DNA from: Candidatus Omnitrophota bacterium
GTDB lineage: Bacteria > Omnitrophota > Gorgyraeia > Gygaellales > Profunditerraquicolaceae
Length of the DNA: 64,000 nucleotides
Direction of reading: 5' to 3'
Assembly (NCBI GenBank): GCA_029571225.1
Contig: JAKPTF010000080.1
Span: 1,230 to 65,229, forward strand
The notes under the pieces: generated by a model
Told to the model about the DNA's origin: nothing
The model's database searches: none
The model's input: the letters and a program-made list of their open reading frames with translations, nothing else
Shown here: piece by piece, positions 39,715-51,235 of the stretch
Layout: each line of letters opens with the position of its first letter
Numbering within the stretch: position 1 is the stretch's first letter
Translations under genes and position numbers: made by a program

Positions 39715-40788
39715 TTAAATTCCGGCAACGATCTTTTTTCTGATCTCTTTCTCTATTTCGTCGGCCAGCTTGGGATTCTCGCGCAGCGCGGTAATCGCTG
39801 CCTCCCTGCCCTGACCTATTTTTTCATTGTTGAACGACAGCCATGTCCCCGACTTCTGGACGACTTCCAGGTTCAATCCGGCGTCTATAATGCTTCCTGC
39901 CTTGTTGATGCCCTGGTCATGAAGGATATCGAATTCCGCCTCGCGGAACGGAGGGGCGACTTTGTTCTTGACCACCCTGACGCGGACGTGACCCCCGATC
40001 ACAGCATCCCCCGATTTAAGTGATGCGATCCTGCGCACGTCAAGCCGCACCGAGGAATAAAATTTGAGCGCCCTGCCTCCGGGGGTCGTCTCAGGGTTGC
40101 CGAACATTACGCCGATCTTCTCGCGCAGCTGGTTTATAAAAATTACGCATGCACGCGATTTGGATATTGCCGCAGTCAGCTTGCGCAAAGCCTGCGACAT
40201 TAGCCGCGCCTGCAGGCCCACATGCGAATCGCCCATCTCCCCTTCGATCTCTGCTCGCGGGGTTAACGCGGCAACCGAATCCACCACGATCAGATCGACT
40301 GCATTCGACCTAACCAGGGTTTCGGCGATCTCGAGCGCCTGTTCGCCTGTATCCGGCTGTGAAATAAGCAGTTCATCGAGGTTCAAACCGATCTTTTTGG
40401 CATAGGTGGCGTCAAAGGCGTGCTCCGCGTCAATGAACGCGGCGACCCCGCCTCTCTTCTGCATTTCCCTGATCGCGGTAAGGGTCAACGTGGTCTTTCC
40501 AGATGCCTCGGGCCCAAAGATCTCAACGACCCTGCCGCGGGGCAGTCCTCCGGTGCCAAGGGCGTAATCAAGGGTAAGGGACCCGGTCGGAATAACCTCC
40601 ACATCGACCTTCACCTTTTGCCCCAGCTTCATGATCGAGCCTTTGCCAAACTGTTTTTCGATGTGCGACAGGGCAAGATCAAGCGCTTTCTGCCGTTCAG
40701 AGCTGTCTTTGGCAGTGTCCTTTAACATATCCCTGGCCGGAGCCTCTTTCTGAGATTCCTTATGGGATTCCTTCTTTTCGAGTGCCAT
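39715..40788 (-). CDS. recA: recombinase RecA
   Basis: 357 aa; '[10 protein letters not shown]', 'FIDAEHA', 'VVDSVAAL'. Confidence 0.98.
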
Positions 40789-40833
40789 ATGCGCCTCCGT
40801 AAAGGGTTAAAAAGCATTGGAAATTAGAGAATT

Positions 40834-40862
40834 ATTATATGATACCCGCATGGAAGTGTCAA
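40834..40862 (-). promoter_or_regulatory. consensus sigma70 promoter of recA (TTGACA-17-TATAAT)
   Basis: Both hexamers read perfectly on the minus strand; ~40-nt leader with a GGAGG Shine-Dalgarno. Confidence 0.7.
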
Positions 40863-40968
40863 CCGAATTATACCCCCTTTCCAAGGCCCATGCGGCCTCG
40901 TAACAATAGACTCTTCGATTACGTAAATCTCACACATATCGCAGCCGGCACCTGTCGTTCACTATGGG

Positions 40969-40997
40969 TTGACACGGTAGCGCAAATATGCTATAAA
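40969..40997 (+). promoter_or_regulatory. sigma70 promoter TTGACA-17-TATAAA, with the -10 ending 9 nt before ATG 41007
   Basis: Hexamers at 40969-40974 and 40992-40997. Confidence 0.65.
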
Positions 40998-41006
40998 GTA
41001 ATATCT

Positions 41007-42170
41007 ATGGAAGAACTCTCCTCAATCAAGCAGGAGCTCGAACGCACCAAATCCGAGCTGGCAATCCTCTACGAAATCTCCAATGCAATGCGCACCACCC
41101 TGAAGCTGGATGAGATCCTTTATATCATCCTCACCGGGGTCACAGCGCATATCGGACTTGGGTTCAACCGGGCTATGCTTTTTTTGGTGAACGAAAGGGA
41201 AGGCATTGTTGAGGGGAAAATGGCCATCGGGCCGGAAACAGGCGAAGACGCCAACCGTGTCTGGAAATACGTCGAGCAGGAAAAAATGGACATGGATGAC
41301 CTGATAAACGCCTATAAGGTCTCTAGCCACATCCAGCAATCCCCCTTTAACCGCCAGGTCCAGCGGTTCAAGATACCCCTGCAGGATCATAAGGACAACC
41401 TTTTCTCCATTGTAGTGCTTGAAGGCATGCCGCTCCACCTGACCAAGGAGACAATCGGCCACTACAGCAATGACGCGGTCATCAAGATGCTCAAATCCGA
41501 GGAACTTGTCATCGTGCCGTTAAAAGCGAAGGACAAAGTCAACGGGATAATCCTTGCCGACAACTTCATCACGAAAAAACCGATCACCAAAGACGACCTG
41601 CGCATGCTCATCATGTTATCGAACCAGGCGGGGCTGGCGATCGAAAACTCCCAATTGTACGAAAAAACCGTCATCAGCACCCATCAGGATTCACTGACCG
41701 AACTGTGGAACCATGGGTATTTTCAGCATCTGCTGGCCATGGAGCTCGAAAAAGCACGGGCGACGTCGAACCCTTTGAGCCTGATCATGCTCGACATAGA
41801 CGATTTCAAGGTTTACAACGATACGCTCGGCCACCAGAACGGAGACAGGATCCTCAAGGACATGGCTACGCTCCTTAAGAATCATTCCCGGAAAATGGAT
41901 TATGTGTGCAGATACGGGGGCGAGGAATTCGCGGTCATACTCCCCTACACCGATAAAAATGAAGCTGTTATGATCGCCGAGCGCATGCGGGAGAACATAG
42001 CCAGAACTCCGTTTCTCAACCAGGAAGTCCTGCCCAATAAAATCCTCACGGTCAGCATCGGTGTTGCGACCTTCCCTGAGAACGCAAACTCGACAGCGGA
42101 ATTGATCTCCTACTCGGACAAAGCCCTGTACGAAGCGAAGAAAAAAGGCAAGAATACCACCTGCGCTTAA
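41007..42170 (+). CDS. GAF domain-containing diguanylate cyclase (GGDEF)
   Basis: Active site 'RYGGEEF' with I-site 'RKMD' five residues upstream; N-terminal coiled coil plus a GAF-like region; start moved from 40839 to ATG 41007 on promoter evidence. Confidence 0.88.
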   Translation: MEELSSIKQELERTKSELAILYEISNAMRTTLKLDEILYIILTGVTAHIGLGFNRAMLFLVNEREGIVEGKMAIGPETGEDANRVWKYVEQEKMDMDDLINAYKVSSHIQQSPFNRQVQRFKIPLQDHKDNLFSIVVLEGMPLHLTKETIGHYSNDAVIKMLKSEELVIVPLKAKDKVNGIILADNFITKKPITKDDLRMLIMLSNQAGLAIENSQLYEKTVISTHQDSLTELWNHGYFQHLLAMELEKARATSNPLSLIMLDIDDFKVYNDTLGHQNGDRILKDMATLLKNHSRKMDYVCRYGGEEFAVILPYTDKNEAVMIAERMRENIARTPFLNQEVLPNKILTVSIGVATFPENANSTAELISYSDKALYEAKKKGKNTTCA

Positions 42171-42238
42171 AATGGGGTCAGGCACGAATTAAACAACATA
42201 CTTATGTAGTCGATTTAATTCGTGCCTGACCCCATTTT
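42169..42238. terminator. bidirectional terminator: 25-bp perfect inverted repeat between convergent genes
   Basis: AAAATGGGGTCAGGCACGAATTAAA (42169-42193) pairs with 42214-42238; A-run and T-run flanks; sits between the GGDEF stop and the smc stop. Confidence 0.75.
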
Positions 42239-45200
42239 TTACGCAGGGACTGCTTCGGGCTCGGGGCTCGCAGGCGCAGCCGGTTCCTGGCCAACCTTTT
42301 TCTCCCCGAACTTCACGGAAACTATCTTCGAGACGCCTGATTCCTGCATGGTAATGCCGTACATGACGTCGGCATTGGCGATCGTCTTCTTATTATGGGT
42401 GATGACGATGAACTGCGATGTCTGGCTGAATTCCTGCAGTATCCTGCCGAAACGGTCCACATTCGCTTCGTCAAGAGCGGCGTCGATTTCATCAAGGATG
42501 CAGAACGGCGAGGGTTTCACCTTGAAGATCGCGAAGATAAGCGCGATCGCGGCCATGGATTTTTCCCCGCCTGAAAGCAGCAATACGTTCTGCAGCTTTT
42601 TTCCCGGAGGCCGGCAGATGATCTCGATGCCTGATTCGAGCGGGTCCTGTTCGTCGATGAGATATACCTGGGCGTCACCGCCGTTGAACAGGGCCCGGAA
42701 ATAGTTCCTGAACTCCTCGCGAACGCGCTCGAACGTCTCCAGGAACATCTTTTTCGTCGTACGGTTGATCTTCTGTATCGCATCCTGCAAGGACTCCTTG
42801 GCAGTGACCAGGTCCGCCTGCTGCTGGGTCAGGAAATCATACCGTTTCTTGAGCTCGTCATATTCTTCGATGGCAACGAGGTTCACCGTGCCGTACGAGC
42901 TTAATTTATCCTTGAGCCTGGCAACCTCTTCGTTCAACGCGTTCTCGTCCAATCCTTCAATGCTGAACGCAGGCTTGATCTCTGGCGCTGGAGCGGGAAC
43001 CTCGGATTTTTCAGCCGCGGGCTCTGCAGGCTGCCCGGCATCCGGAGCCTGCTGGCTGCCCGTGATCAACACGGCAAGGTCCTCGGTGTCCAGGTCGATC
43101 TTATACGACTGCAGAAGCTTCTGCCTGATGCTCTGGTACTTGAACTCGAGGTCCTTGGCATCCATCTGCACTTCATAGAGCTTATCCTTCAGCGCATCGG
43201 ATTCCTTGCGTTTCTCGCCGATCTCCGCCTCGATCTCTGAAATGCCGGCCACAACCGCCTGGGACTGGGCCTGCGCATCGATAAGCGACGCCTTGAGAAC
43301 CTGCATATCGGCTTCGGTCTGCGCGATCTTCTTATGCAATTCGCCGATCTCAACGGTAAAGGTTTCCTGCTTGACCGACATCTCCTGCAGGCGCGCCGCC
43401 ATCTGGGCGATCTCCGCCTCGTCCTGGATGCATATTTCTTCAAGCGCTTTAAGCTCGGCCTCGTCAGCGGCACGGCGCTTCACCAGATTCTCCAGTTCGG
43501 TCTTTACCTGCGCGATGACAACCAGCACCTCTTCCTTGATCCGGTTGTTCAGGTTGATATGCTCCTGGGCGTCATGAATCGATGCCTCCCACGCCTTATG
43601 CTCTTTTTCAAGATTGGCGATATCCGTATGCAGTCCGCTCAATGACTGGGCAAGCACCGCCATCTCCTGGCCGGCATCGCCGAGTTCCATGACGATGATC
43701 TGGGCCTCCTCGCTGATCTTGTCGAATTGTTCTTGCACGCTCTGCTGAACGGTCTTTTTGCTGGAAAGCGCGACTTCCTTGTCCTGGACCTGTTTGATCA
43801 GGTCCGCGACCCGGTTGTTCAGATCCTGGATCCTGCCTTCCTTCGCAAGCTTGTCGTTCTTGAGCACCGCGATCCGCTCTTCTGCGGCCCGTATTTTCTC
43901 CATCACCTTCTGCGCGTCAAGATCGATCGGTTTTGCTTCCCCGGCTATGCGGTACCCCTGCGCCGCATCCGCGGGCAGTTCCTGCGCCGGAGCATCGTCC
44001 CTGATCTTGACCACCAGGCCCGTGATCCGCTCGCTCGGCGCCTTATCGAGGTAGATGGTCGCGTTCATCGACTCGCTGATGCCGTCATACTGGTTCTGCA
44101 GCCGCTGGAGAAACTCCTTCTGGGATTCAAGCGCGTGGCGCTGTCGCTCCATATTCTCCAGTTCCTGATTGATCGAGAGAAGCGACGCGTTCTCGGCGTC
44201 AAGCTCGCCCTTCAGCGCAGAAAGGCTGCTGCTCAAGGCGGCGTATTCGGATTCGAGCTGGGATACCTCGCCGAATATCTGGGCGAGGGACGATTCGAAC
44301 TGGTTCTTTTCTTCCGAGATCTTCGCCTTTTCAAGTTCGAGCCGCCTCGTCCGCGCGATCAGAACCTGCTCCTTCGACGTCAGGCTCGAGAGCTCGTTCT
44401 TTGCCTGGGACACCCGCACCGCCAGGTCCATGATGTTCTTTTTTGCCATGGCGATGTTATCCGTCGCCGCCTTGATGGCAGCGACGACCGCGTTCAACTG
44501 CTCTTCGTTGCCCCGGAGGCTCACCGTTTTGTCTTCAATGCTCCTGGTGATGATCGAGAATTCCTGGCGCAGCCTGCTTAATTTTTCAGTGTCCTGGATC
44601 AACCGTTCCCTGGTCTGGGTTATCTGGGATTCGAGATACTGCTTTGACGAATCGAGCTCTTTGATACGCTCCCCGTTGAACTCTATATGCTGTCTGTCGT
44701 GAGAAATCGTGTTCTCCAGATTCACCAGGTCGTTCTTGACCGTGGAGATCTTCTCTTCATACCCCTTCAGCTCCTCGTTGCGCAAAGACAGCTTCATCTC
44801 CGCTTCGCTGATCGTCAGGGCAATCGCGTCTTCCCGCTGTTTCAACCCCTCTATCTGATCGAGGAACGCGGCCTTCTCCTTTGCCAGGTTATTCTTCTGC
44901 ACTGCGGCAAGGGACAGTTCTTTCTTCTTGAGCTCCTCGAACGCGGCCTGGTACCTGCGCGCCTTGTTCGCCTGGCGCTCGAGATACCCGATAGACCGCT
45001 TGACCTCGGCGATGATGTCGTTGACGCGAAGCAGGTTCTGTTCGGTTTCCTCAAGCCGGCGGAGCGCCTCGCGCTTCTGCGCCTTGTATTTGGTAATGCC
45101 GCTGGCTTCATCGAAGACCTGGCGCCGTTCTTCCGGTTTGGAACTCAAGACAAGGTCGATCTTGCCCTGCGCGATGATCGAATAGCTTTCCGCGCCGATG

Positions 45201-47254
45201 CCCGTGCCCATCAACAGGTCGAGTATGTCCTTGAGCCTGACCTGCGAACGGTTAAGCAGATATTCGCTGTCGCCGGACCTGAAGATCCTGCGGGTGATCA
45301 TGACCTCGTCATGGTCATATGAGAAGAACCGCGCTTTGTTATCGAAGGTAAGGCTCACCTCCGCCATGCCCAGCGCCTGCTTGGTATCGGTGCCGTTGAA
45401 GATCACGTCCTCCATCTGCATGCCGCGCAGGGACTTCACCGACTGCTCACCGAGCACCCACCGGATCGAGTCGAAGATATTGCTGTTATGAACGATGATA
45501 TCCTGCGCGACAAAATTATGGTTCACCGGTATGGAAAGGTCATACACCCATTCGGGCCGCGCGACTTTCCGGATAGAAACAACCTCGTCCCAATAGATCT
45601 GAGAAACGGTCAGTTGCTTAAGATAATCATGAATGCAGCGCGCAAGGCCGGTCAACTCCGCGTATTCGGTAATAATATGCAGCGCCTCGGACAGGCCCTG
45701 CCGCGATGGCAGGCAGCGGTTTTCATAATACGAGGCAAGTTTCGGGGAATACATTCTCAGCTTTTTAACGGACACGCCGGACAACTGCACCAGTTCCTTA
45801 AATAACCCGTTAACGCCCGGAATAAGATCAAAGTTAGGGTTCGCTTTGGCATCCATGTTTTTGATCCGGCCCAGATCGCCCGCTTTCACCCCGACAAAAC
45901 GCAGACAACGGGCCAGATTCTTTACATTATCCATTCCGTAAATATATACGGAATAATACGGCCGCCTGGTTTTATTCGCCGTATTGGAAGCATATTTGAT
46001 CTTCTTGCGTATGACCGACTGGACGCCGAGCTTCAACAATAAACTTCTGACACCGGTTGCAAGGTCATGCGATGCCGATGCATACTCGATATATGCCGTT
46101 TTGTTCCCCCGTGCAGGTCCCACGTCAGTCCTGATATACGCATCTCCCTCGAACAACGCTGAGAGGAATTCACCTGTAGCCTCGAGACCGGCATGCTGTA
46201 TCAACTCCGGAATTTTCTTTTCGCTTGAACGACTGTCGATCCCAATGCCGAACGCCTTCTCAAGATACTGGCACAATGCGTGAGAAAAAATGATAACATC
46301 GGAAGCGGATTCTTTGTAATGGAACTCTTTTGCTTCGGCTGCGAACGCTTCTTGCGCGCATTCAATATAGTCCTTGATTATTGCCCGGTCTTCATTGACA
46401 AACCACACCTGGTTTTCTTTTGTCGTCCTGCCTTCAGCAAGAAGATACCCCAGAAAACGCGCAACAGGCCGGTTCACACGTCCCGGAAGGCGGATCCGTC
46501 CGGAACTGCGCGATTTCAAGCTATCGACAAATTCAGGGATCTGTCCGCAGCCGATATCCTCCAGCATTGAGCAAAAATCCACCGTATTGACTGCCTGTTC
46601 CGCCGTCGTTGACTTGACGCATGATGCATACGCAGTATGCTTTGCCTGGGTGTTGTTCCGCTCGAGGAACCGCTCAAGATTCGCCGAGAACGGGATATAC
46701 ATCAGGTCTTTTCTCTGAAAGCGCTTGAGTATCCGGAAATTATCGATCGTGTCACATGGGTTCACCGGGCTGATAACCCGCGGGCATGCGATAGAAATAC
46801 CCGCTCTCAAGTCTTCTGCCTTCAATGCAAATACCTGCCCGTCTTTAATACTGAAGAACGGGTGGTAATGCGTGGTCACTACGTTTCTGCCTGATCGCGT
46901 GGTCACTGACAAAAGATAATCAGGGGCTCTGCGCTTGATGAACGAATACACCGGTTGCGGCTCGAGAGCCATGGTGTGAGGATTCATCGAAAGCACACGA
47001 ATGCCTGCCGGATTATCCCCTGTCATGACGCCGTCATCGAGTTCTCTGACGTCAGAGGACTGCGCCAGGGCCTGATCGACCAGCGTACCGATCTTAACCC
47101 GGATACCGTTATCGAGCGTGACGAGTGAATCGTAATGCAGGCATTTCCCGCAGCCGTTGGGGCCCACGACCGCGGTGATGCCGGGCTCAAAATCAAGCAC
47201 CGTCTTGTCCATGAACGACTTGAATCCGACGATCTCCAGCTTTTTAAAATACAT
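42239..47254 (-). CDS. smc: chromosome segregation protein SMC (intein-containing precursor, 1671 aa)
   Basis: N-terminal 'LEIVGFKSF...GPNGCGK'; after the insert 'SNIFDSIRWVLGEQS'; long coiled coils; C-terminal 'LSGGEKSMAAIAL' signature and 'FCILDEIDAALD' Walker B; GGAGG Shine-Dalgarno upstream. Confidence 0.93.
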   Translation of the reverse strand: MYFKKLEIVGFKSFMDKTVLDFEPGITAVVGPNGCGKCLHYDSLVTLDNGIRVKIGTLVDQALAQSSDVRELDDGVMTGDNPAGIRVLSMNPHTMALEPQPVYSFIKRRAPDYLLSVTTRSGRNVVTTHYHPFFSIKDGQVFALKAEDLRAGISIACPRVISPVNPCDTIDNFRILKRFQRKDLMYIPFSANLERFLERNNTQAKHTAYASCVKSTTAEQAVNTVDFCSMLEDIGCGQIPEFVDSLKSRSSGRIRLPGRVNRPVARFLGYLLAEGRTTKENQVWFVNEDRAIIKDYIECAQEAFAAEAKEFHYKESASDVIIFSHALCQYLEKAFGIGIDSRSSEKKIPELIQHAGLEATGEFLSALFEGDAYIRTDVGPARGNKTAYIEYASASHDLATGVRSLLLKLGVQSVIRKKIKYASNTANKTRRPYYSVYIYGMDNVKNLARCLRFVGVKAGDLGRIKNMDAKANPNFDLIPGVNGLFKELVQLSGVSVKKLRMYSPKLASYYENRCLPSRQGLSEALHIITEYAELTGLARCIHDYLKQLTVSQIYWDEVVSIRKVARPEWVYDLSIPVNHNFVAQDIIVHNSNIFDSIRWVLGEQSVKSLRGMQMEDVIFNGTDTKQALGMAEVSLTFDNKARFFSYDHDEVMITRRIFRSGDSEYLLNRSQVRLKDILDLLMGTGIGAESYSIIAQGKIDLVLSSKPEERRQVFDEASGITKYKAQKREALRRLEETEQNLLRVNDIIAEVKRSIGYLERQANKARRYQAAFEELKKKELSLAAVQKNNLAKEKAAFLDQIEGLKQREDAIALTISEAEMKLSLRNEELKGYEEKISTVKNDLVNLENTISHDRQHIEFNGERIKELDSSKQYLESQITQTRERLIQDTEKLSRLRQEFSIITRSIEDKTVSLRGNEEQLNAVVAAIKAATDNIAMAKKNIMDLAVRVSQAKNELSSLTSKEQVLIARTRRLELEKAKISEEKNQFESSLAQIFGEVSQLESEYAALSSSLSALKGELDAENASLLSINQELENMERQRHALESQKEFLQRLQNQYDGISESMNATIYLDKAPSERITGLVVKIRDDAPAQELPADAAQGYRIAGEAKPIDLDAQKVMEKIRAAEERIAVLKNDKLAKEGRIQDLNNRVADLIKQVQDKEVALSSKKTVQQSVQEQFDKISEEAQIIVMELGDAGQEMAVLAQSLSGLHTDIANLEKEHKAWEASIHDAQEHINLNNRIKEEVLVVIAQVKTELENLVKRRAADEAELKALEEICIQDEAEIAQMAARLQEMSVKQETFTVEIGELHKKIAQTEADMQVLKASLIDAQAQSQAVVAGISEIEAEIGEKRKESDALKDKLYEVQMDAKDLEFKYQSIRQKLLQSYKIDLDTEDLAVLITGSQQAPDAGQPAEPAAEKSEVPAPAPEIKPAFSIEGLDENALNEEVARLKDKLSSYGTVNLVAIEEYDELKKRYDFLTQQQADLVTAKESLQDAIQKINRTTKKMFLETFERVREEFRNYFRALFNGGDAQVYLIDEQDPLESGIEIICRPPGKKLQNVLLLSGGEKSMAAIALIFAIFKVKPSPFCILDEIDAALDEANVDRFGRILQEFSQTSQFIVITHNKKTIANADVMYGITMQESGVSKIVSVKFGEKKVGQEPAAPASPEPEAVPA
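45485..47143 (-). mobile_element. class-1 intein with a LAGLIDADG homing-endonuclease domain (residues 38-590 of the smc ORF)
   Basis: Cys1 'CLHYDSLVTL', block B 'TTHYH', LAGLIDADG motifs 'FLGYLLAEGRT' and 'FLSALFEGDAY', terminal 'IIVHN' followed by +1 Ser. Confidence 0.9.
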
Positions 47255-47275
47255 TATTCCTCCGCCGTAGAATGA

Positions 47276-47449
47276 TCATGACGCGTGTGATTGCTGTTCG
47301 ATCCACAAATCAATCTTCTCTTTGCGAAAACGCCATTGCCCGACGAGCTTGAGCGCCGGGATCTTGTTGTGTTTCAACCAGTCGTAAATGGTCCTGCGGC
47401 TTACGCGCAGATACCCTGCAAGGTCATCGATTGTCATGAGGTCATTCAT
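47276..47449 (-). CDS. small helix-turn-helix DNA-binding protein (excisionase / MerR-like HTH_17 type), 57 aa
   Basis: Own translation: MNDLMTIDDLAGYLRVSRRTIYDWLKHNKIPALKLVGQWRFRKEKIDLWIEQQSHAS; below the ORF-track length cutoff; lies 21 nt upstream of smc. Confidence 0.7.
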   Translation of the reverse strand: MNDLMTIDDLAGYLRVSRRTIYDWLKHNKIPALKLVGQWRFRKEKIDLWIEQQSHAS

Positions 47450-47458
47450 ATGGATTTA

Positions 47459-47486
47459 ATTATATATAAAACCAAAAAATTGTCAA
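47459..47486 (-). promoter_or_regulatory. consensus sigma70 promoter TTGACA-16-TATAAT, with the -10 ending 9 nt before the HTH ATG
   Basis: Hexamers at 47486-47481 and 47464-47459 on the minus strand; AT-rich tract further upstream (47505-47620). Confidence 0.7.
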
Positions 47487-47668
47487 GCATATTTTTGCTA
47501 TAATTAACATAAAATTCATAAAAATTTCATAAAAAGGCAATTAAATAACTTTTAATTCTAAAAATGTCTTATTTTTACATTATTATGCAGATTTTAACAT
47601 ATTTTACAGGATGGGTCGTGTGGTAGGAATATTACGAGGGAATCATCTACTACGCGGTTACTGTCCGG

Positions 47669-48043
47669 TCATCCAAGCGCATCTTTGACTTTTTGCAGAA
47701 GTTCTTCAAAGGTGCAGGGCTTGTTGATGCAATCGCATCTGCCCAGCTCCCTGGCCTGCTTGATCATGCCGGAGAATTCAAGCTCTTTGCCGGTCATGAA
47801 TATGATCGGGGTGTTTTTTGTCGCCTGGTCCCGGCGCAGCAGGATGCCCACGGCATAGCCGTCCATATCCGGCATGACAATATCAAGGATAAGCAGGTCT
47901 GGCTTGAATTCTTTAACCCTGGCGTTGATGTCTTTGCCTTCAGAAAGCGCCAGGACCTCGAACCCGCTGGCGGTCAGTTTCTTCGCGAGGACCGAAAGCA
48001 CATCCGGCTCGTCATCAGCGAGCAATATCTTTTTCGCAGCCAT
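47669..48043 (-). CDS. stand-alone response-regulator receiver domain (CheY-like)
   Basis: 'ILLADDEPD', phospho-acceptor 'LLILDIVMPDMDG', 'IIFMTGK', 'INKP'; start at ATG 48043, preceded by AAGGAAGG. Confidence 0.88.
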   Translation of the reverse strand: MAAKKILLADDEPDVLSVLAKKLTASGFEVLALSEGKDINARVKEFKPDLLILDIVMPDMDGYAVGILLRRDQATKNTPIIFMTGKELEFSGMIKQARELGRCDCINKPCTFEELLQKVKDALG

Positions 48044-48068
48044 CCGCGCACCTTCCTTGTTCATGCGT

Positions 48069-49271
48069 CTATTTATGCAGGACTTCCTTGAACTTTTTGG
48101 TAAGAGCGGGAACGATCTCGAATATGTCTCCGACGATGCCGTAGGTGGCTACCTTGAAGATCGGCGCGTCGGGATCCTTGTTGATTGCGACGATGACCTT
48201 TGACGACTGCATGCCCACCAGGTGCTGGATCTGGCCCGAGATGCCGCATGCGATGTAGAGCTTCGGGGCAACAGTCCTGCCGGTCTGCCCCACCTGGTGC
48301 GAATACGGCATCCATCCCGAATCCACTGCGGCGCGCGATGCGCCGACCGCGGCGCCGAGAACCTGCGCGAGCTCTTCGAGCATCTTGAAATTCTCGTGAT
48401 TGCCGAGCGCGCGGCCGCCTGAAACGATGATATCGGCTTCTGCGAGATTGACCAGGTTCTCCACCTCTTCCACCACGTCAAGCAAAGTGGTGCGGTTAGA
48501 AAGATCTGAGGCGGTGAACGTCTCTTTGACGATCTTTCCCTTGCGGTGCTTGTCCAGCGCAGGCTGGTTGAATACCTTATGCCTGACCGTTGCCATCTGC
48601 GGACGGTGGTTCGGCGAGATGATCGTCGCCATGATATTGCCGCCGAAGGCGGGCCTCGTCTGCAAAAGGATCTTGCGGTCAGGGTCTATATCGAGCCCGG
48701 TGCAGTCCGCGGTCAGGCCGCAATCGACCGTGATCGCAACGCGCGACATCAACGACCTGCCGATGATCGTCGCGCCTGAGAGCATGATATCGGGCTTATA
48801 TTTGCGGATCAGCTTGATGACCACTTTTGAATACGCCTCATCCAGGAAATTCGCCAGCTGCGGCTCGTCAACGACATACACGGTATCTGCTCCGGCGCTG
48901 ACCAGTTCCTGCGCTCCCAGATCGACATTATGGCCGATGAGCACGGCGCCGACGTAGGTCCCGAGTTTATCCGCGAGTTCCCGAGCCTTGCCGACGAGCT
49001 CGAACGACACGGACTGGACCTTGCCTTTTTTCTGCTCGGCAAACACCCACACGCCTTTGTGGTCGCTGAAATCCTTTTTTTCCGCCGCTGCAGCAGGTTT
49101 TTCCAGCAGTATCGCCTTGAATTTACACGCCGGCACGCAAGCGCCGCATAGATTGCATTTATGAAGGTCGATGATTGCCTTCTTGTTCACGACCGTGATC
49201 GCGCCGAAGGGGCATGTCTTCACGCACAACGTACAGCCGGTGCACTTCTCGGTAATGATCTTTATTGACAT
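48069..49271 (-). CDS. etfA: electron transfer flavoprotein alpha subunit with an N-terminal 2x[4Fe-4S] ferredoxin domain
   Basis: 400 aa; '[12 protein letters not shown]' and '[11 protein letters not shown]'; C-terminal FAD-binding '[14 protein letters not shown]'. Confidence 0.92.
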
Positions 49272-49283
49272 ATATATATTCCT

Positions 49284-50081
49284 CTAACCAGTAATGACTT
49301 CTTTTAAAAGCCCTGCCACCTTAGCGACGATCTCTCCCGTCTCTCCGGTTATCATCTGCCCTCCGGTGCGGTGCGCAGGAGTGAATATCCTGACCACATT
49401 GGTGGGAGACCCCGAAAGGCCAAGGTCCTTGGGATCCGCGTCGATATCCTTTGCCGTCCACACGGCGATCTTGGCAGATTTCGCGCGCATCATGCCCTTT
49501 AATGACGGGATGCGCGGTTCGTTGATCTCTTTGACCACGGTGAAGAGCACCGGCAGGGGCGCTGAGATAACGTCATACCCCTCTTCGGTCATGCGCTCGA
49601 CTTTGACCGTATTATCCTTGACCTCTTCGATCTTTTTGACATACGTAACCTGCGGGATATCCAGGTGCGTGGAGATTCCGGGCCCGACCTGCGCCGTATC
49701 CCCGTCCGATGCCTGTTTGCCGCAAATGACCACGTCATACCCGCCGAATTCCTTTGCCGCTTTCCTGATGGCGCAGGACAACGTATAACTGGTCGCCCAG
49801 GTATCGCTTCCGGCGAACGCCCGGTCCGAAACGAGTACCGCTTCGTCGCAGCCCATGGATATGGCTTCGCGCAACGCAGCCTCAGCCTGGGGAGGCCCCA
49901 TGGTAATAACGATAACCTTACCTCCCATCTTTTCCTTGAGCCGCACGCCCGCTTCGATGGCATACATGTCAAAAGGATTGATGATGGATTTTACGCCGTC
50001 GCGGATGAGCGTATTCGTTTCGGGGTTGATACGGACATCCGTCGTTTCCGGGACCTGTTTGATACAAACGATTATGTTCAT
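49284..50081 (-). CDS. etfB: electron transfer flavoprotein beta subunit
   Basis: 265 aa; starts 'MNIIVCIKQVPE'; 'VICGKQASDGDTAQVG'. Confidence 0.93.
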   Translation of the reverse strand: MNIIVCIKQVPETTDVRINPETNTLIRDGVKSIINPFDMYAIEAGVRLKEKMGGKVIVITMGPPQAEAALREAISMGCDEAVLVSDRAFAGSDTWATSYTLSCAIRKAAKEFGGYDVVICGKQASDGDTAQVGPGISTHLDIPQVTYVKKIEEVKDNTVKVERMTEEGYDVISAPLPVLFTVVKEINEPRIPSLKGMMRAKSAKIAVWTAKDIDADPKDLGLSGSPTNVVRIFTPAHRTGGQMITGETGEIVAKVAGLLKEVITG

Positions 50082-50083
50082 TG

Positions 50084-51235
50084 TTATTTCCCTAAGTCTT
50101 TGATCATCTGCAATCCGATGATATTGCGCTGGATCTGATTGGTGCCTTCGTAGATCTGGGTGATCTTTGCATCGCGCAGGTATTTTTCAACCGGATAATC
50201 CTTCATATACCCGTATCCGCCATGGATCTGGATGGCGTTATCGCATACCCTGAACGCGACGTCCGAGGCGAACAATTTGGCCATGGCAGAAGCCGCGCCT
50301 ACGTCCTTGTCACCTGCGTCGATCGCGCGCGCGCATGAATACACAAGCGCCCTGGCTGCCTCCAGTTCAGTCGCCATATCGGCGATCATCCACTGGATGC
50401 CCTGGAGGCTCGAGATCGGCTTGTCGAACTGCTTGCGCTGGCGCGTATATTTCGCCGCGAGTTCGAGAGCGCCCTGCGCGATGCCCAGCGCCTGCGCAGC
50501 AACGCCGGGCCTGGACATATCGAACGTGCGCATGGTCACGATAAAGCCCATGCCTTCTTTTGCCAGAAGGTTCTCTGCAGGGACCTTGCAATCGTTGAAT
50601 ATCAATTCCATGGTGGAAGACGCACGAATACCCATTTTGTCTTCCTTCTTGCCGAAGGTAAATCCCTTGGTGCCTTTTTCCACGATGAAGGCCGACGCGC
50701 CGCGCGCGCCTTTGCTTTTATCCGTGATGGCGACGACCGAATACGTTTCGGCATCCCCGCCGTTGGTGATAAAATGCTTTGTGCCGTTCAGAATATAGTA
50801 ATTGCCTTCCTTGCGCGCGGTCGTTTTGATTGAACCGGCGTCAGACCCTGCCTCAGGCTCGGTCAGGCCGAACGCCGCGAGCTTCTTGCCCTTTGCCAGG
50901 TCAGGAAGGTATTTTTTCTTCTGCGCGTCGTTTCCGTAGAGGACGATCGGGAACGTGCCGAGCGCGCTTGCCGCGTAGCAGACGGCAATGCCGCCGCAGG
51001 CGCGGGACAACTCTTCAGTCGCAAGGCACAGGTTCATGACGCTGACTCCCATGCCGCCGTACTCTTCAGGGATGAACAGGCCGAACAGGTCTGATTCAGC
51101 GATGACCTTGATGACCTCCCAGGGAAATTTCTCGGTCTTGTCATATTCGGCTGCCACAGGCCTGATCTTTTCCTCGGCGATCTTATGCGCCAGGTCCTTG
51201 ATCATCTTCTGTTCATCGGTCAAAAGGTAATTCAT
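50084..51235 (-). CDS. acyl-CoA dehydrogenase (butyryl-CoA dehydrogenase-like)
   Basis: 383 aa; 'GLTEPEAGSD', C-terminal 'QIHGGYGYMKDYPVEKYLRDAKITQIYEGTNQIQ'. Confidence 0.93.
   Translation of the reverse strand: MNYLLTDEQKMIKDLAHKIAEEKIRPVAAEYDKTEKFPWEVIKVIAESDLFGLFIPEEYGGMGVSVMNLCLATEELSRACGGIAVCYAASALGTFPIVLYGNDAQKKKYLPDLAKGKKLAAFGLTEPEAGSDAGSIKTTARKEGNYYILNGTKHFITNGGDAETYSVVAITDKSKGARGASAFIVEKGTKGFTFGKKEDKMGIRASSTMELIFNDCKVPAENLLAKEGMGFIVTMRTFDMSRPGVAAQALGIAQGALELAAKYTRQRKQFDKPISSLQGIQWMIADMATELEAARALVYSCARAIDAGDKDVGAASAMAKLFASDVAFRVCDNAIQIHGGYGYMKDYPVEKYLRDAKITQIYEGTNQIQRNIIGLQMIKDLGK

Follow-up and report, generated by a model that had tools for sequence, protein, structure and literature searches.

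Inteins seated in the P-loops of ATPases make up the commonest intein class, and a few of them have been shown to serve as environmental switches of the essential ATPases that they interrupt. Conditional splicing has been shown experimentally for the intein of Pho RadA, which is held by a lock that depends on temperature and on the extein (PMC4513877), and for the M. smegmatis DnaBi1 intein, which is controlled by an oxidative disulfide (PMC6195587). For SMC, inteins from archaea have been mentioned (Novikova et al. 2016, PMC4760082); archaea are the only SMC hosts given in the main text of that paper, and SMC is not among the entries of its top-15 table of bacterial hosts. Here, we report that the window, a stretch of 64,000 nucleotides from a Candidatus Omnitrophota bacterium (GenBank assembly GCA_029571225.1, contig JAKPTF010000080.1, positions 1,230 to 65,229), very probably harbours, between the lysine (-1) and the serine (+1) of Walker A in its smc gene, a class-1 intein that contains a two-motif LAGLIDADG homing endonuclease, as judged from sequence comparison and structure prediction. 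Its class is very well known; the element itself has apparently not been described before, although it is widespread in uncultivated bacteria and archaea. A preliminary description of this DNA had called P-loops a classic intein niche, and they are indeed a known hot-spot (PMC4513877; PMC4760082). The SMC allele extends the list of P-loop inteins to the bacterial chromosome-condensation machinery; mechanism, niche and, in archaea, host family were already known, and no concept is changed.

The insert between the Walker A lysine and serine of SMC

The smc precursor is encoded by an open reading frame (ORF) at window positions 42239..47254 on the minus strand, as are all features of the gene given below. 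Its 1671 amino acids (aa) comprise a 37-aa N-extein, a 553-aa intein and a 1081-aa C-extein, followed by the stop codon, and the ORF reads ...AVVGPNGCGK|CLHYDSLVTLDNG...NHNFVAQDIIVHN|SNIFDSIRWVLGEQS, with residue 591 onward being SNIFDSIRWVLGEQS. The N-extein (47144..47254, residues 1-37) ends seven residues into Walker A, with GPNGCGK (47144-47164), of which Lys37 is the -1 and Cys35 the -3 residue of the junction. The insert itself (45485..47143, residues 38-590) consists of 553 codons in frame with zero stops and sits between the Walker A Lys37 and the serine; the boundaries given in the preliminary description were exact, and every motif that it quoted from the insert was found in its place. 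The C-extein (42242..45484) supplies the remaining SMC head, the coiled coil, a reduced hinge and the C-terminal head. The Q-loop IIAQGK (45161-45178), signature motif LSGGEK (42560-42577), Walker B ILDEID (42482-42499) and H-loop ITHN (42392-42403) are all intact, while Walker A is whole only with the intein deleted. As a whole, the ORF scored 852 bits against the bacterial SMC equivalog TIGR02168 (SMC_prok_B), for which the curated cut-off is 567. The spliced SMC could be aligned end to end with the intein-free SMC P0041, encoded at the syntenic locus L086, at 75% identity over 1020 aa and without gaps at the N-terminus, which bears out the earlier statement that removal of the insert restores a normal SMC N-terminus.

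Within the insert, the N-terminal splicing (Hint) lobe was delimited by phmmer, AlphaFold2 (AF2) and conservation to intein aa 1-125 (46769..47143), and contains block A with Cys1 (ORF Cys38; 47141-47143) and the block B motif T-H-Y-H (T91...H94; 46862-46873). The two LAGLIDADG motifs are FLGYLLAEGRT (46424..46456), with the predicted catalytic Glu237, and FLSALFEGDAY (46136..46168), with the predicted catalytic Glu332. The C-terminal splicing lobe (aa 517-553, 45485..45595, delimited by phmmer) includes block F WVYDLSIPVNHNF (45512-45550) and block G DIIVHN (45485-45502) and ends in His552-Asn553. It is followed directly by the +1 Ser codon AGC (45482..45484), whose product serves as the serine of Walker A and also as the nucleophile for transesterification.

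Searches with profile hidden Markov models gave strong matches of the insert to intein splicing (Pfam Intein_splicing PF14890, E=3e-22, aa 11-553) and to the endonuclease (Pfam LAGLIDADG_3 PF14528, E=3e-14, aa 325-411), so the lack of Hint similarity that the preliminary description had named as a possible objection does not apply. The NCBIfam models intein_Nterm (TIGR01445, E=3e-13) and intein_Cterm (TIGR01443, E=6e-5) were both matched beyond their curated cut-offs, and NCBIfam models of many intein-containing proteins gave partial matches that fall in their intein portions. In an alignment of 78 SMC-intein alleles the residues C1, T91, H94, D535, H542, H552 and N553 are invariant, and the LAGLIDADG acidic residues are nearly so (E237 in 78/78, E332 in 77/78). 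Among solved structures the sequence relatives of the insert found by phmmer are the CDC21-1, V-ATPase, DnaB, KlbA and RadA inteins and PI-PkoII; aa 2-126 aligned to the PhoCDC21-1 and PabCDC21-1 inteins (6rpq/6rpp), and the central part matched the V-ATPase intein endonucleases. A profile built from the intein alignment detected no second intein in the six-frame translation of the window.

The AF2 model of the intein, computed with 13 homologues as input, reached a mean confidence (pLDDT) of 90.5 and a pTM of 0.90. Beta strands are spread over aa 7-121, in the N-terminal splicing lobe, and the predicted secondary structure of aa 225-413 fits the alpha-beta-beta-alpha-beta-beta-alpha core of LAGLIDADG enzymes. 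When compared with the PDB by Foldseek, the model matched TliVMA (7qss, E=2e-27, TM-score normalised to the target 0.84) and PI-PkoII (2cw7, E=1e-25), further PhoVMA, PI-PfuI (1dq3) and PI-SceI (1vde), and then mini-inteins and the free-standing LAGLIDADG enzymes I-DmoI, I-Tsp061I and I-OnuI. It could be superposed on the CDC21-1, TFIIB, RadA and DnaB mini-inteins at 1.6-2.8 Å over about 125 columns. In the predicted structure, the Hint fold of both splicing lobes and the two-motif LAGLIDADG core are thus present. All the sequence and structure tests that were run support the earlier proposal of a class-1 LAGLIDADG intein that splits the lysine and serine of Walker A and leaves a P-loop only after splicing.

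Splicing would be expected to follow the canonical class-1 pathway, which is established intein chemistry (reviewed, for instance, in PMC10663303). An N-S acyl shift at Lys37-Cys38, helped by Thr91 and His94 of block B, would give a thioester, and attack on this thioester by Ser+1 would produce a branched ester. Cyclisation of Asn553, helped by His552 and by Asp535 and His542 of block F, would then free the intein, and an O-N shift would rebuild the Lys-Ser bond and with it the P-loop GPNGCGKS. Because this P-loop would form only at the final joining of Lys and Ser, binding and hydrolysis of ATP by SMC should be impossible before splicing. The excised intein is probably an endonuclease that has kept its activity and would cut intein-less smc where the P-loop is encoded (consensus ...GGCTGCGGNAAR|AGYAATATC...), upon which the intein would be copied in by double-strand-break repair.

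Distribution, empty sites and mobility

The Genome Taxonomy Database (GTDB) was scanned at one genome per species with the intein alignment as query, and the best 80 of 287 relatives were analysed. These 80 are 38-81% identical to the query across the full 553 aa, and in about 75 of them a homologous intein is demonstrably located in smc at the identical position; in L037, L050, L054 and L082 the N-junction was mis-assigned or missed, owing to contigs that end or to an internal 'GK'. In a protein search, a homologous intein was found at GPNGxGK|C...HN|SN in 33 SMC fragments (39-57% identity), and GxxGxGK|C...HN|SN is the insertion point common to these and to the roughly 75 GTDB loci. By record title the carriers among the best 80 are mostly Omnitrophota, together with Acidobacteriota (Pyrinomonadaceae, Blastocatellia), Rokubacteriota/Methylomirabilota, Chloroflexota, Armatimonadota, a few bins labelled as candidate phyla radiation (CPR) and one Aenigmatarchaeota bin. 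The nearest relative, L006, is an Omnitrophota metagenome-assembled genome (MAG) from a sludge digester, with an intein 82% and a C-extein 86% identical to those of the window.

A profile search of 1.84 billion representatives returned 1081 clusters at E<=1e-30. The top 45 or so are SMC alleles and include archaeal-type SMCs (P0147, P0152 and P0158, above the cut-off of TIGR02169); the ranks below are taken by P-loop alleles of MCM, by MCM alleles of the GL|T type and by further ATPases with GK|S/T. In the first protein search, the four nearest inteins from hosts other than SMC are likewise inserted right after the Walker A lysine. Since its nearest relatives outside SMC share this position, the SMC intein is part of a large clade of inteins mostly aimed at P-loops.

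Public records give the bacterial genes of this family no name beyond 'LAGLIDADG family homing endonuclease' or 'AAA family ATPase'; a practical consequence of the present finding is that these public smc genes are mis-labelled. The preliminary description had taken SMC for a host that is rarely catalogued. This stands insofar as no paper describing a bacterial SMC intein was found in literature searches, the only hit being Novikova et al. 2016, which names archaeal SMC in its main text; it does not stand insofar as the archaeal inteins are mentioned there (PMC4760082) and many public MAGs contain the bacterial allele.

Intein-free alleles, which the preliminary description had proposed to look for, exist in close relatives. 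At the syntenic locus L086, with genes for acyl-CoA dehydrogenase and electron transfer flavoprotein (ETF), smc, a GGDEF gene and recA, smc has no intein, and a metagenome scan with the spliced SMC head retrieved 80 loci at 77-89% identity, all of them intein-free. The ranking of that scan by contiguous match favours empty alleles, and the 80/80 therefore says nothing on the frequency of occupancy. The absence of the segment from 80 close relatives does refute the reading, allowed for in the preliminary description, of a conserved non-splicing insertion in SMC orthologues.

The empty smc site can be written as ...GGCTGCGGGAAA|AGCAATATCTTC..., and variants with the serine codons TCC, TCA and TCG are found among the empty alleles (L086, L094-L173). 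At the +1 serine, 72/78 intein-bearing alleles (92%) have AGC or AGT (AGY), as do 19/19 of those closest to the window, against TCN in 62/80 (78%) and AGY in 18/80 of the empty alleles (nominal Fisher p 2e-20 for all 78 versus 80 and 1.6e-10 for the 19 closest versus 80). The split is synonymous and irrelevant to splicing, and therefore points to a process at the DNA level. It may reflect a target preference of the endonuclease, by which TCN alleles would be immune, or co-conversion of the flanking extein during homing.

Discordance between intein and extein was found in several pairs of loci. In the Omnitrophota pair L024/L027 the inteins are 91.5% identical in nucleotides, with a synonymous divergence (dS) of 0.30, whereas the exteins are 60.5% identical and their dS is saturated; L022/L027 and L010/L012 show a similar but weaker discordance. 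The reverse was seen for L012 versus L029/L031, where the head is 82% and the intein 53% identical. Judged on these identities, the pairs indicate recent transfer and replacement of the intein within Omnitrophota. Together, the AGY/TCN codon split and the inteins shared by the divergent exteins of L024/L027 argue that the family is mobile at the DNA level. Empty sites, codon split, discordant pairs and a decayed allele, P0033, are the traces expected of a homing cycle. As occupied and empty alleles that differ at a synonymous target codon coexist in close relatives, the SMC-intein family lends itself well, as a natural system, to work on the specificity and immunity of homing sites, on the persistence of inteins and on a possible redox control of splicing.

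Several points weigh against this reading or limit it. The codon test ignores phylogeny, and its intein-bearing set derives from GTDB genomes while its empty set derives from metagenome contigs. The finding that the endonuclease is intact in nearly all alleles may give too favourable a picture, as one of the two scan patterns was the second LAGLIDADG motif and the ranking favoured full-length matches. At least one allele is decayed: in P0033, a Blastocatellia SMC whose intein of 302 aa (aa ~40-341) occupies the same site, the endonuclease region is replaced by tandem PSHFRTSGGIAAGNMRPFLEE-like repeats, making it a decayed or mini form of the SMC allele. A scan of viral contigs with the intein profile gave only relatives of 21-29% identity and thus no close copy in a viral vector.

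Inheritance in the window lineage and alternative explanations

Between the window and L006 the intein has a dN/dS of 0.14 and a dS of 0.76, and the extein a dN/dS of 0.09 and a dS of 0.92. By these codon-based estimates the whole intein, endonuclease included, has been under purifying selection since the two lineages split, and the similarity of the two dS values shows that the intein was already in their common ancestor. The element is thus old in the window lineage, in which it has been passed on vertically since the divergence from L006, the nearest relative sequenced, or for longer.

Such a history is also what one would expect if the intein still splices while its endonuclease no longer homes here, leaving a fixed vertical passenger in which the endonuclease is kept for folding, for splicing or for some benefit to the host. 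The matching dS values against L006 are in line with this, as are the co-variation of intein and extein identity to the window (Spearman 0.83-0.85, 70 loci) and the amelioration of intein GC content to that of the host (r=0.95 over hosts of 29-75% GC, among the 64 SMC-intein loci with a C-extein of >=300 aa, L006-L085). Selective retention of P-loop inteins has moreover been argued for by Novikova et al. (PMC4760082). We nevertheless regard a fixed passenger as rather unlikely. Both catalytic glutamates are intact and the low dN/dS extends across the intein; the recent transfer seen in L024/L027 and the divergent inteins carried by the near-identical hosts L012 and L029/L031 show the family on the move; a DNA-level codon signature is present at the target; and the many empty alleles in close relatives speak against fixation.

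A different role for the insert is suggested by the sequence C-G-K-C at the N-terminal junction. A disulfide between Cys35 (-3) and Cys38 (Cys1) would block the first splicing step under oxidation and so halt the production of active SMC in an anaerobe, thereby placing SMC maturation under redox control. The CGKC is read straight from the sequence, and there are precedents in the Ssp DnaE intein, where a Cys-3/Cys1 trap was engineered, and in the Pab MoaA intein, which has such a trap natively (PMC3922620), as well as in the reversible block of the M. smegmatis DnaBi1 P-loop intein by oxidative stress (PMC6195587). The distribution of the cysteine makes such a gate doubtful. Cys-3 occurs in 62/77 intein-bearing alleles, but it is equally common in intein-free relatives (72/80), which rules out an enrichment with the intein and marks the residue as a feature of the host rather than a co-adaptation of the intein; 12/77 of the intein-bearing alleles have Ser at -3 instead. 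More speculative still, and in our opinion improbable, is a scenario in which the CGKC trap of this anaerobic Omnitrophota lineage switches off SMC post-translationally, and with it chromosome organisation and segregation, under oxidative stress, and in which the SMC intein lineage moved between archaeal-type and bacterial-type SMCs by way of their shared P-loop site.

The preliminary description had also noted, by eye, that the insert is more AT-rich than its surroundings and had read this as fitting horizontal acquisition. The first part was borne out by computation: the window intein has a GC content of 50.6% (58.2% at third codon positions, GC3) and the extein 56.3% (GC3 76.7%). A recent horizontal acquisition of the intein by the window genome could account for the difference, and the family is evidently mobile elsewhere (L024/L027), but this origin is very unlikely. 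The intein is less GC-rich than the extein in 63/64 of the loci compared, on average by 6.5 points in GC and 13.5 in GC3. Low GC is hence no mark of recent arrival, since the deficit is found across the family whatever the GC content of the host. The intein GC3 also lies within the range of the window genes (46.7-78.0%, mean 66 +/- 6), and L006 has the orthologous intein, at a dS so close to that of the extein that the intein must be older than the split. The systematic GC deficit of SMC inteins is an observation in its own right, for which weaker codon selection and a donor bias in repeated homing are possibilities.

To read the insert as an insertion that does not splice, as the mark of an inactivated smc pseudogene or as an assembly artefact is hardly credible, as the frame is open over 5 kb, the identical 1671-aa protein was called on two metagenome assemblies, the catalytic residues are invariant, selection is purifying, all SMC ATPase motifs are intact and the same architecture is found in dozens of independent genomes.

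The smc neighbourhood and comparison with known inteins

Besides the intein, the SMC of the window has an unusual hinge. The canonical SMC hinge PF06470 was detected neither in the whole protein at E<=0.1 nor in the mid-region at E<=10, and the Pfam domains precomputed for the intein-free Omnitrophota-like SMCs P0038-P0064 do not include it either. In place of the usual hinge of about 150 aa with GRATFLPL there is a conserved segment of about 55 aa (...GESMNAxIYLDK.P....GLVVKI...GEAKPIDLD), which was aligned in the window SMC and three Omnitrophota relatives (P0046, P0054, P0059). This reduced hinge is located at window positions ~43900-44090 (minus strand; extein aa ~505-565). An AF2 monomer of the region has confident coiled-coil arms and an apex of three short strands at pLDDT 42-60, to which no fold could be assigned.

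The window at 39715-51235 and the intein-free L086 share the gene order acyl-CoA dehydrogenase, EtfB, EtfA with an N-terminal ferredoxin domain, smc, a divergent GGDEF/GAF gene and recA. Several L086 genes look split, probably by assembly frameshifts. A 57-aa ORF of the HTH_17 type (excisionase/MerR-like; 47276-47449, minus strand) lies 21 nt upstream of smc, and the intergenic region that precedes it (47450-47650) has 32-38% GC and carries TTGACA-N17-TATATA. Upstream of smc, the window and L004/L005 have both this helix-turn-helix (HTH) ORF and a response-regulator gene, neither of which was called in L086; a further Omnitrophota record, P0031, has the HTH joined in frame to the N-terminus of SMC.

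The closest counterparts of the window intein are the archaeal SMC inteins, which share its host protein; those of P0147, P0152 and P0158 are full-length homologues that split Walker A at the same K|S and are 34-42% identical to it. Unlike those of the archaeal inteins, the host in the window is a bacterial-type SMC (TIGR02168), from Omnitrophota. More distant are the inteins of other P-loop proteins: LonB-like (P0034), HerA-like (P0035/P0037) and SpoIIIAA-like (P0036) proteins and GGTGSGK-type ATPases (P0176, P0231, P0232) all carry the intein right after the Walker A lysine (GK|C...HN|S/T); with the endonuclease counted in, these inteins share 27-30% identity with that of SMC. Their hosts, named here from flanking motifs and one source name, are unrelated to SMC.

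In overall architecture the insert resembles TliVMA (7qss), PI-PkoII (2cw7), PI-PfuI (1dq3) and PI-SceI (1vde), having the same predicted layout of a Hint domain split by a two-motif LAGLIDADG core and accessory domains. Foldseek E-values to these range from 2e-27 to 3e-12 at a sequence identity of 12-19%, and hosts and DNA targets differ. TliVMA and PI-SceI reside in V-ATPase subunit A, as opposed to SMC in the window, and PI-PkoII and PI-PfuI in a DNA polymerase and a ribonucleotide reductase, respectively.

The best solved sequence match to both splicing lobes (E=5e-21) is that of the P-loop inteins of MCM/CDC21-1, PhoCDC21-1 (6rpq) and PabCDC21-1 (6rpp), in which WVYDLQVPEHHNFIANGIFVHN of the window intein aligns against WVYDLSIPVNHNFVAQDIIVHN, and the profile of the SMC inteins has MCM alleles that end in ...HN|SQLLxYV among its next-best relatives. 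From their extein sequences we take these MCM alleles and 6rpq/6rpp to represent MCM site a. Site a lies in the P-loop according to Novikova et al. (PMC4760082). These inteins differ from that of the window in having an AAA+ instead of an ABC-type host, in that the solved CDC21-1 forms are mini-inteins without endonuclease, and in an identity of only ~30%.

As for function, the nearest parallels are the inteins of Pho RadA (PMC4513877) and M. smegmatis DnaBi1 (PMC6195587), which are likewise inserted in the P-loop and make the ATPase dependent on splicing, as is predicted for the window SMC. In DnaBi1 the P-loop serine is also the +1 splicing nucleophile (PMC6195587), as it would be in the window intein. 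Both are mini-inteins without endonuclease, DnaBi1 being of class 3, whereas the window intein belongs, in all probability, to class 1 and has retained an endonuclease.

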